Source of the DNA: Escherichia coli
GTDB lineage: Bacteria > Pseudomonadota > Gammaproteobacteria > Enterobacterales > Enterobacteriaceae
Length of the DNA: 64,000 nucleotides
Reading direction: 5' to 3' (one strand)
Assembly: GCF_036507355.1 (NCBI RefSeq)
Contig: NZ_AP027877.1
Shown here: positions 46,911 through 47,418 of the stretch, in pieces
Position numbering within the stretch: position 1 is the first letter of the stretch
Layout: the number at the start of each line of letters is the position of its first letter
Position numbers and translations under genes: made by a program
The notes under the pieces: model-generated
What the model was told of the DNA's origin: nothing
Databases searched by the model: none
Seen by the model: the letters and a program-made list of their open reading frames with translations, nothing else

Positions 46911-47418
46911 TTAACTTTCCTTATTTTTTAATTTGTCATAATTGCAACAGATTGGCATTATTCTGTTTTCATTATCTAGCGTTATTTGTTTGATGCAAAA
47001 AAGAATGTCTACGGCAAGTATAAATTGTGTAAAAGAGGGCGTGATTATCGTTGATTTATTTTTCCGCTCTATTTTTGTCCATAGTTCTTCTATGGATACC
47101 GGTCCATCAATTAACGAACGGATGTATCCTGCAATCGCAATTAGGGAGTTACTAAACCTAACATGCTTATGTGGCAGAAGCATTGCTTGGATGTTCATAA
47201 GCATCACATGTCTCAAAATATTTAGCTAAAATTAACTCTGCAGCAAATCGATAACTCGCGACCGCACTTGTGGGAACTTGCGGGGGAAGGAGTTTATCTA
47301 TCATCCAAGTATATCTTAAATCTGCATAATTGTGGTTATCTTCAGTTATCGCCAATTTACTTTTTGCATAAGTATCTCTAACTTCTTGAGCTATAGTTTG
47401 TTCAAGACCACAAGACCA
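46911..47418 (-). other. Two overlapping short ORFs in different frames: small middle gene or frameshift-disrupted coding sequence
   Basis: Frame A open 47418-47167 (only TTG start, no SD); frame B 47216-46911 ends with TAA abutting ATPase ATG; overlap 47167-47216. Confidence 0.35.

Follow-up and report, generated by a model that had tools for sequence, protein, structure and literature searches.

An 8-bp tandem duplication very probably breaks the effector gene of a candidate ABC-three-component operon in Escherichia coli

Introduction

ABC-three-component (ABC-3C) systems were reportedly defined by Krishnan, Burroughs, Iyer and Aravind in NAR in 2020. The system type is already known and annotated, under the ABC-3C name, as the Pfam families CTD10, MC6 and DUF2326, and in PADLOC as PDC-M68. 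The Lamassu operon LmuACB is also denoted ABC-3C (10.1101/2025.03.14.643221). In the cryo-EM analysis of Lamassu, LmuA touches both LmuB protomers and LmuC through its C-terminal domain (C-LmuA), which is also the oligomerisation domain required to assemble the active nuclease tetramer; no contacts are made by the nuclease domain, N-LmuA (10.1101/2025.03.14.643221). How the effector is released and oligomerises is known only for the Lamassu systems of Salmonella enterica and Vibrio cholerae (10.1101/2025.03.14.643221).

Here we analyse a locus in a 64,000-nucleotide stretch of Escherichia coli DNA, referred to throughout as the window. We regard this locus, with high confidence, as a candidate anti-phage operon of the ABC-3C, Lamassu-like kind, composed of an effector, an MC6 middle component and a DUF2326 ATPase. 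The region from 46911 to 47418, where the reading frame appears to be split, is in all likelihood the junction of the effector and MC6 genes of that operon. An initial annotation had proposed that the state of this region decides whether the system is intact. This is correct, and the system was found not to be intact.

Results

Open reading frames at the junction

All of the relevant genes lie on the minus strand in our ORF reading of the window (Table 1). The gap upstream of the ATPase gene had been described as filled by two overlapping ORFs in different frames, and both are indeed present on that strand; they overlap each other by 50 nt when the second is read from its TTG, or by 32 nt from the ATG at 47198. 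Several further details of that description held as well. The first small ORF shares 34 nt with the end of the 260-aa ORF upstream, and it opens on a TTG lacking a Shine-Dalgarno sequence, with a best anti-Shine-Dalgarno duplex of -0.4 kcal/mol and no in-frame ATG before 47304. The TAA of the second small ORF directly abuts the ATPase ATG at 46910. The upstream gene had been given as 260 aa, which is right for the longest ORF and probably wrong for the protein: the ATG at 48122 has a Shine-Dalgarno duplex of -5.2 kcal/mol and is the start annotated in homologues, so this is most likely the start of the gene, with a product of 243 aa. Since both small ORFs encode conserved protein, they are not chance ORFs. 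The first corresponds to residues 238-315 of a family of about 316 aa, and the second matches the Pfam family MC6.

Table 1. Features of the operon and the surrounding island, in window coordinates.
Feature	Coordinates	Strand	Description
tRNA-Gly(CCC)	38339-38412		last 23 nt repeated 4.2 kb downstream
First integrative element	38413-42607		543-aa tyrosine integrase and a weak KilA-N-like ORF
Tandem repeats	40180-40224		13-bp period, GATGACCATAGGC, ~3.5 copies; just downstream of the first island's integrase
AT-rich repeats	40586-40738		three copies of a very AT-rich unit, ~47-48 bp
Repeat of tRNA end	42585-42607		23 nt
Second integrative element	begins with integrase at 42772		408-aa integrase; carries the ABC-3C operon and ars genes
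Conserved 'hypothetical protein'	44196-45131	+	311 aa; longest ORF from 44154
ABC ATPase, DUF2326 type	45207-46910	-	567 aa, full length; ATG directly after the MC6 TAA
MC6 middle-component gene, intact	46911-47198	-	95 aa from conserved ATG 47198
Second small ORF	47216-46911	-	from TTG; in-frame ATGs at 47204, 47198 and 47183; TAA 46913-46911
First small ORF (frame)	47424 to TAA 47169-47167	-	first start-type codon TTG 47355
Effector out-of-frame 3' remnant	47167-47403	-	native residues E238-T315 and TAA; TTG 47355 is codon L254
Lesion, perfect 8-bp tandem duplication	47403-47418	-	TGGTCTTG followed by TGGTCTTG on the coding strand; CAAGACCA twice on the + strand
Truncated effector gene	47391-48122	-	243 aa: 237 native residues and 6 aberrant ones (VVLNKL), TAG stop
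Longest upstream ORF	48173-47391	-	260 aa from ATG 48173, ends at TAG 47393-47391
arsR-arsD-arsA-arsB	48333-52199		arsenic-resistance operon, divergent from the defence operon

A single duplication in the effector gene

The operon locus was recovered by megablast from the chromosomes of six complete E. coli genomes at 96.5-99.6% identity. The E. coli copies are annotated as an 'ABC-three component system protein' of 315 aa, an 'ABC-three component system middle component 6' of 90 aa that overlaps the effector by 17 nt, and a 'DUF2326 domain-containing protein'. Alignment to intact homologues, the check that the initial annotation had called for, uncovered a single 8-bp insertion and an intact MC6 gene. 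On the coding strand the window reads GATAA-TGGTCTTG-TGGTCTTG-AACAAAC, as against GATAA-TGGTCTTG-AACAAAC in the homologues. Across the effector and MC6 genes, the resulting 8-nt gap at 47411-47418 is the sole indel in alignments to three homologous loci (L001, L002 and L005). Elsewhere in the operon, the only length difference is one of 3 nt at 46157-46159, which keeps the ATPase gene in frame and is particular to L001; scattered SNPs further distinguish the window from L001 and L002.

The one extra copy shifts the effector frame by +8 nt after residue 237, leading to the stop at 47393-47391. When one copy is deleted, the gene encodes a 315-aa protein identical to WP_063410130.1 (P0001). We consider it highly probable that the effector gene is broken by this one 8-bp tandem duplication and that the small middle gene after it is intact. 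An effector gene broken by two frameshifts had been among the explanations first offered. The effector is indeed frameshifted, but only once, as a single indel separates the effector/MC6 stretch from the intact loci, and only the first of the two small ORFs belongs to the effector. Likewise, the interval originally delimited, 46911-47418, does contain the ORFs, but the cause of their split sits at its upper edge.

The nearest relative of the window is the locus L005. Over 8,273 bp the two differ by 4 SNPs, none of which lies in the operon, and by the 8-bp difference as the sole indel. The MC6 and ATPase sequences of the two loci are identical, and the L005 effector is an intact protein of 315 aa. 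Because the operon of the closest relative is identical but for the duplication, the duplication appears to be recent and strain-specific. Judged from these sequences, the inactivation of the gene looks like an ordinary, recent event confined to one strain. In exact-sequence look-ups, the truncated 243-aa product (WP_338388096.1) and the 62-aa ORF (BED21069.1, 'hypothetical protein VEE46_08370') were each found on one E. coli contig only; the intact 315-aa protein identical to the repaired effector is on 83 public contigs and a 99% variant on 98. Exact scans of JGI metagenome contigs returned 0 matches to the duplication junction and 0 to the wild-type junction, and these counts, having no denominator, are uninformative about allele frequency.

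That the allele is a singleton, its truncated product being on 1 contig and the identical intact protein on 83, would also fit an assembly or sequencing artefact, in which case the strain would have a single TGGTCTTG copy and an intact 315-aa effector. The identity of the L005 operon outside of the 8 bp, with no further decay accumulated, favors the same explanation. Against it stand the independent lesions in other family members, which indicate that inactivation of the ABC-3C operon is common in nature. Moreover, a perfect 8-bp non-homopolymeric tandem duplication is an untypical error of short-read or long-read platforms and of polishing. Since this is not the usual mode of error, we consider an artefact improbable.

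Comparison with intact homologues

A search with the repaired effector protein returned 189 homologues, of which the best 120 clusters were listed, spanning 42-99% identity. Among these 120 clusters, the proteins are mostly 313-325 aa in length and all carry PF20275 (CTD10); none has a short form of the effector with a separate small gene. A natural short effector variant of about 245 aa was considered and set aside, as it is absent from the homologue clusters listed. The triad of CTD10, MC6 and DUF2326 genes is conserved as an operon in E. coli, Erwinia tasmaniensis (effector of 315 aa at 83% identity, MC6 of 89 aa, DUF2326 ATPase of 567 aa), Halomonas (317 aa at 58%, 98 aa and 567 aa) and Geobacter metallireducens (316 aa at 45%, 86 aa and 566 aa). 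In the Erwinia, Halomonas and Geobacter triads, the MC6 gene starts 32 nt before the effector stop.

These homologues bear directly on whether a programmed (-1 or +2) ribosomal frameshift, or another form of recoding, could join the 260-aa ORF to the first small ORF and yield a full-length effector. Within the 34-nt overlap, a -1 shift would produce the full-length protein, longer by three residues in an interhelical loop. However, the intact homologues, both near and distant, are all encoded by one continuous ORF, and none of the 120 listed clusters needs a frameshift. The overlap at 47424-47391 (GGT CTT GTG GTC TTG AAC AAA CTA TAG) lacks an X XXY YYZ slippery heptamer, and the split itself was created by a strain-specific duplication. 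We therefore give programmed frameshifting, one of the original proposals, next to no probability.

It could also be supposed that the space between the effector and the ATPase contains two real small genes, or else a damaged middle gene, given that both ORFs are open and that the 62-aa one is annotated as a protein (BED21069.1). This 62-aa ORF, however, is effector residues 254-315 behind a TTG start without a Shine-Dalgarno sequence (-0.4 kcal/mol), and a separately initiated gene of about 60 aa is present in no homologous locus examined. Loci with the same two small genes were looked for in E. coli, Erwinia, Halomonas and Geobacter, and there were none. The inactivated middle gene that had been suggested is likewise contradicted by the second ORF, which encodes a whole MC6 protein: its Pfam match is full-length, its start is conserved, and it natively overlaps the effector 3' end in another frame. 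Both versions of this idea are hardly credible, and an effector gene interrupted by one duplication and followed by an intact MC6 gene remains our preferred reading.

The middle component and the ATPase

The second small ORF matches Pfam MC6 at 2.3e-16 with 60.0 bits (cut-off 27.2) over profile positions 1-73 of 76. It sits between the effector and the ATPase, starting inside the effector 3' end and stopping where the ATPase ATG begins, which is the place of a middle component. Start calls for this gene differ between pipelines, and forms of 90 aa (47183), 95 aa and 97 aa (47204) are all common in public data. In an alignment with MC6 proteins from Geobacter, Halomonas and Erwinia, the start Met is invariant and corresponds to the window ATG at 47198, MNIQAMLLPHKH... 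This alignment with distant homologues favors 47198, and the 90-aa start in RefSeq is probably slightly short. At window position 46940, codon 82 of the 90-aa form encodes Tyr in the window and in L005 and Asp in the other E. coli copies (T vs G). The Y82 allele occurs on two other contigs, one of which is L005 (GCA_047852605.1). As the residue falls outside the part matched by Pfam MC6, and as L005, with its intact effector, has it too, the substitution is probably neutral.

The ATPase matches Pfam DUF2326 at 1.5e-29 with 102.9 bits (cut-off 28.7) and PADLOC PDC-M68B at 7.7e-73 over residues 3-563, and these matches identify it as the ATPase component of an ABC-3C system. A Walker A-like SNGVGKT is found at its N-terminus. 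The ATPase gene has a Shine-Dalgarno sequence of its own (AAGGA, -6.2 kcal/mol); the candidate MC6 starts have no usable one (-2.7 kcal/mol or weaker).

The lost segment of the effector

The remnant left out of frame by the duplication covers the latter half of Pfam CTD10. The residues lost with it, 238-315, form the best-conserved block of the family across 39 aligned homologues, with the motif AAExxLAKYFETCDAYEHP and the invariant residues Y249, R267, Y268, W270, A292, F300, E301, C303, D304, Y306 and P309. The repaired effector matches CTD10 with 39.6 bits over residues 173-307 (profile positions 2-134 of 134), and the 243-aa effector as encoded reaches 15.3 bits, below the cut-off of 28.1, over profile positions 2-63 of 134. 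The present allele thus fails as a CTD-bearing ABC-3C effector, and the gene qualifies as one after removal of the 8 bp. On the strength of these profile comparisons, the ancestral effector gene is taken to be an ABC-3C member and the present allele a truncated pseudogene. NCBIfam has no model for the effector or for MC6.

An AlphaFold2 model of the effector (pLDDT 83.9, pTM 0.84) has two domains, an alpha/beta N-domain formed by residues 1 to about 160 and a helical C-domain formed by residues 171-302. In this model the break falls between the helices at 224-232 and 236-255, and the three longest, which are also the last, helices are removed. The truncated product is thus predicted to keep the N-domain, which has a predicted restriction-endonuclease fold, and to lose CTD10 residues 238-315. 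The active-site pattern of the N-domain is non-canonical (GDGGNDG...Q67-x-Y69, with invariant K85, D89, N108 and D109), so nuclease activity is a prediction from fold. Searches of the effector profile and the ATPase against the PDB by sequence gave nothing significant, and only the fold comparison was informative.

Predicted consequences for the operon

If CTD10 acts as the C-terminal domain of LmuA does, an effector without half of it would neither dock on the complex of ATPase and middle component nor become activated. By this analogy, in which the role of CTD10 is transferred from Lamassu, a different ABC-3C clade, the system would be non-functional, and dead rather than deregulated. A second effect may fall on the middle component. 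As MC6 has no usable Shine-Dalgarno sequence and starts inside the coding end of the effector, its translation is probably coupled to that of the effector. Ribosomes on the present allele would stop at 47393-47391, 193 nt upstream of the MC6 start, which would reduce MC6 output; going by the Shine-Dalgarno energies, MC6 is probably under-translated. Translation of the ATPase would be unchanged, owing to its own ribosome-binding site.

Lesions in related operons and the origin of the duplication

Three independent knock-outs of the operon, those of the window, MSB1_9D and CAVP773, were seen among the handful of E. coli copies examined. In E. coli MSB1_9D (L003), IS903B splits the DUF2326 ATPase gene at the equivalent of window positions ~46313-46321, with flanks that overlap by 9 bp. 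In E. coli CAVP773, the effector gene is split by ISSen4, an IS3 family element (L004 4196-4203 and 5428-5431), and the 4-bp segment duplicated there ends on the same base as the 8-bp segment duplicated in the window. Three cluster members (P0005, P0010 and P0012) have frameshifted tails, some of which could be sequencing errors.

Candidate sources of the duplication were considered in turn. The 8-bp unit, as read from the sequence, has no flanking microhomology, and slippage between such flanks is not supported on this account. Template switching at a quasi-palindrome was rejected because the bases inserted do not complement the flank of the other arm, and the local DNA fold at the duplication is unremarkable (z = -1.17). 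Nor is the duplication an excision footprint of ISSen4, whose target-site duplication is 4 bp, the extra CAAG being unlike its termini. A common IS break at this site was discarded as well, as the many short 'partial' C-terminal fragments in the protein cluster begin at scattered points within residues 196-244 and are wild-type in sequence where they cross the site.

More broadly, the duplication might be a footprint of the transposase type or the sign of a mutational hot spot, and it might even allow a costly abortive-infection nuclease to be switched off reversibly. In CAVP773, ISSen4 (target-site duplication ACCG) sits exactly at the phosphodiester that joins the two 8-bp copies of the window; the lack of flanking microhomology is what staggered-cut fill-in predicts, rather than simple slippage; and the ABC-3C operon is repeatedly inactivated in relatives. 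Yet the coincidence involves two events only and was spotted post hoc, the DNA fold at the site is unremarkable, and the 4 extra bases (CAAG) do not match the ISSen4 termini. Excision of bacterial IS elements rarely leaves a clean target duplication, and the allele has been seen once, with no sign of recurrent switching. We judge a footprint, hot spot or switch very unlikely; the coincidence with ISSen4 is unexplained and lends it weak support. The specific proposal that breakage immediately after CAAGACC(A/G) is preferred in staggered-cut DNA transactions, with the clean 8-bp duplication acting as a reversible off-switch, seems to us similarly far-fetched. Were it true, a costly nuclease of the abortive-infection type would be turned off by the duplication, and under renewed phage pressure the gene could be repaired exactly by dropping one copy. 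Our preferred reading of the duplication is that of an ordinary mutation in one strain.

The island carrying the operon

The ABC-3C operon lies in an integrase-bearing island, adjoining an ars operon. The repetition of the 23-nt tRNA end indicates two integrative elements in tandem at tRNA-Gly(CCC), the second of which carries the ABC-3C operon. Two sets of repeats in the first element may be iteron-like or binding-site-like. The arsenic-resistance operon is the immediate neighbour of the defence operon, and the two are divergently transcribed. Of the E. coli copies examined, CAVP773 alone departs from this linkage, having a truncated arsR and other sequence in place of the rest of the ars genes. 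On the other side, convergent with the ATPase gene, every copy of the island has a gene for a conserved 311-aa 'hypothetical protein'. It has a sub-threshold match to Pfam HEPN_RES_NTD1 (5e-5, 24.1 bits vs a cut-off of 27.4) and a C-terminal RNHLVH, which is HEPN-like (Rx4H); a role as a second gene of defence, or as a toxin, is possible.

Discussion

An operon copy that is not intact is not to be counted as functional in an inventory of the defence repertoire, and the 62-aa 'hypothetical protein' in the source record is a pseudogene fragment. More generally, the small middle gene of this operon natively overlaps the effector 3' end in a different frame, which can be mistaken for a frame split. 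The lesions in the window, MSB1_9D and CAVP773 add to a picture in which abortive-infection-type systems are often lost on mobile islands, and the frameshifted variants in other Enterobacteriaceae copies agree with frequent loss of such systems. As the operons of the window and L005 differ by 8 bp only, their alleles make a natural isogenic pair for the study of CTD10.

Compared with Lamassu LmuACB/DdmABC of S. enterica and V. cholerae (9hqx, 9nxx), the window ATPase is of the shorter DUF2326 type, the middle component and the C-terminal domain belong to different families (MC6 and CTD10), and the nuclease motif is non-canonical. Matches to the PADLOC Lamassu profiles are weak and partial, at 1.5e-4 over about 60 residues of the ATPase for LmuB and at 6.4e-3 for LmuA. 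As for the PADLOC candidate PDC-M68, its B profile matches the window ATPase end to end, and its A profile has a weak match to the effector C-terminal domain (1.1e-3, residues 182-308) and none to the effector N-domain. PDC-M68 is a candidate system for which no validated phenotype was found, and a literature search on DUF2326, YydD and PDC-M68 gave nothing relevant.

Structure comparison points in a further direction. The top Foldseek match of the effector model is 9a6c_B, from the integrative model of Bacillus subtilis YydB/YydD (PDB 9a6c), with E = 9e-3 and a probability of 0.98; the global alignment to the effector model is weak (TM 0.34). By sequence, the window ATPase has no match to any PDB chain. 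If YydD is a DUF2326 ATPase, which we take it to be, YydB/YydD would be a homologous effector-ATPase pair, and we offer this as a lead.

The operon also resembles ABC-3C systems (PF20275 CTD10, PF20293 MC6, PF10088 DUF2326). The genes occur in the same order, an effector with a CTD, a middle component and an ABC ATPase, and they overlap or abut one another. Without the extra 8 bp, each of the three Pfam families is matched, and RefSeq names the homologues accordingly. The difference is that the frame of the window effector breaks within CTD10, leaving its score under the Pfam threshold, which makes this operon a disabled copy of an ABC-3C system and not a variant architecture.
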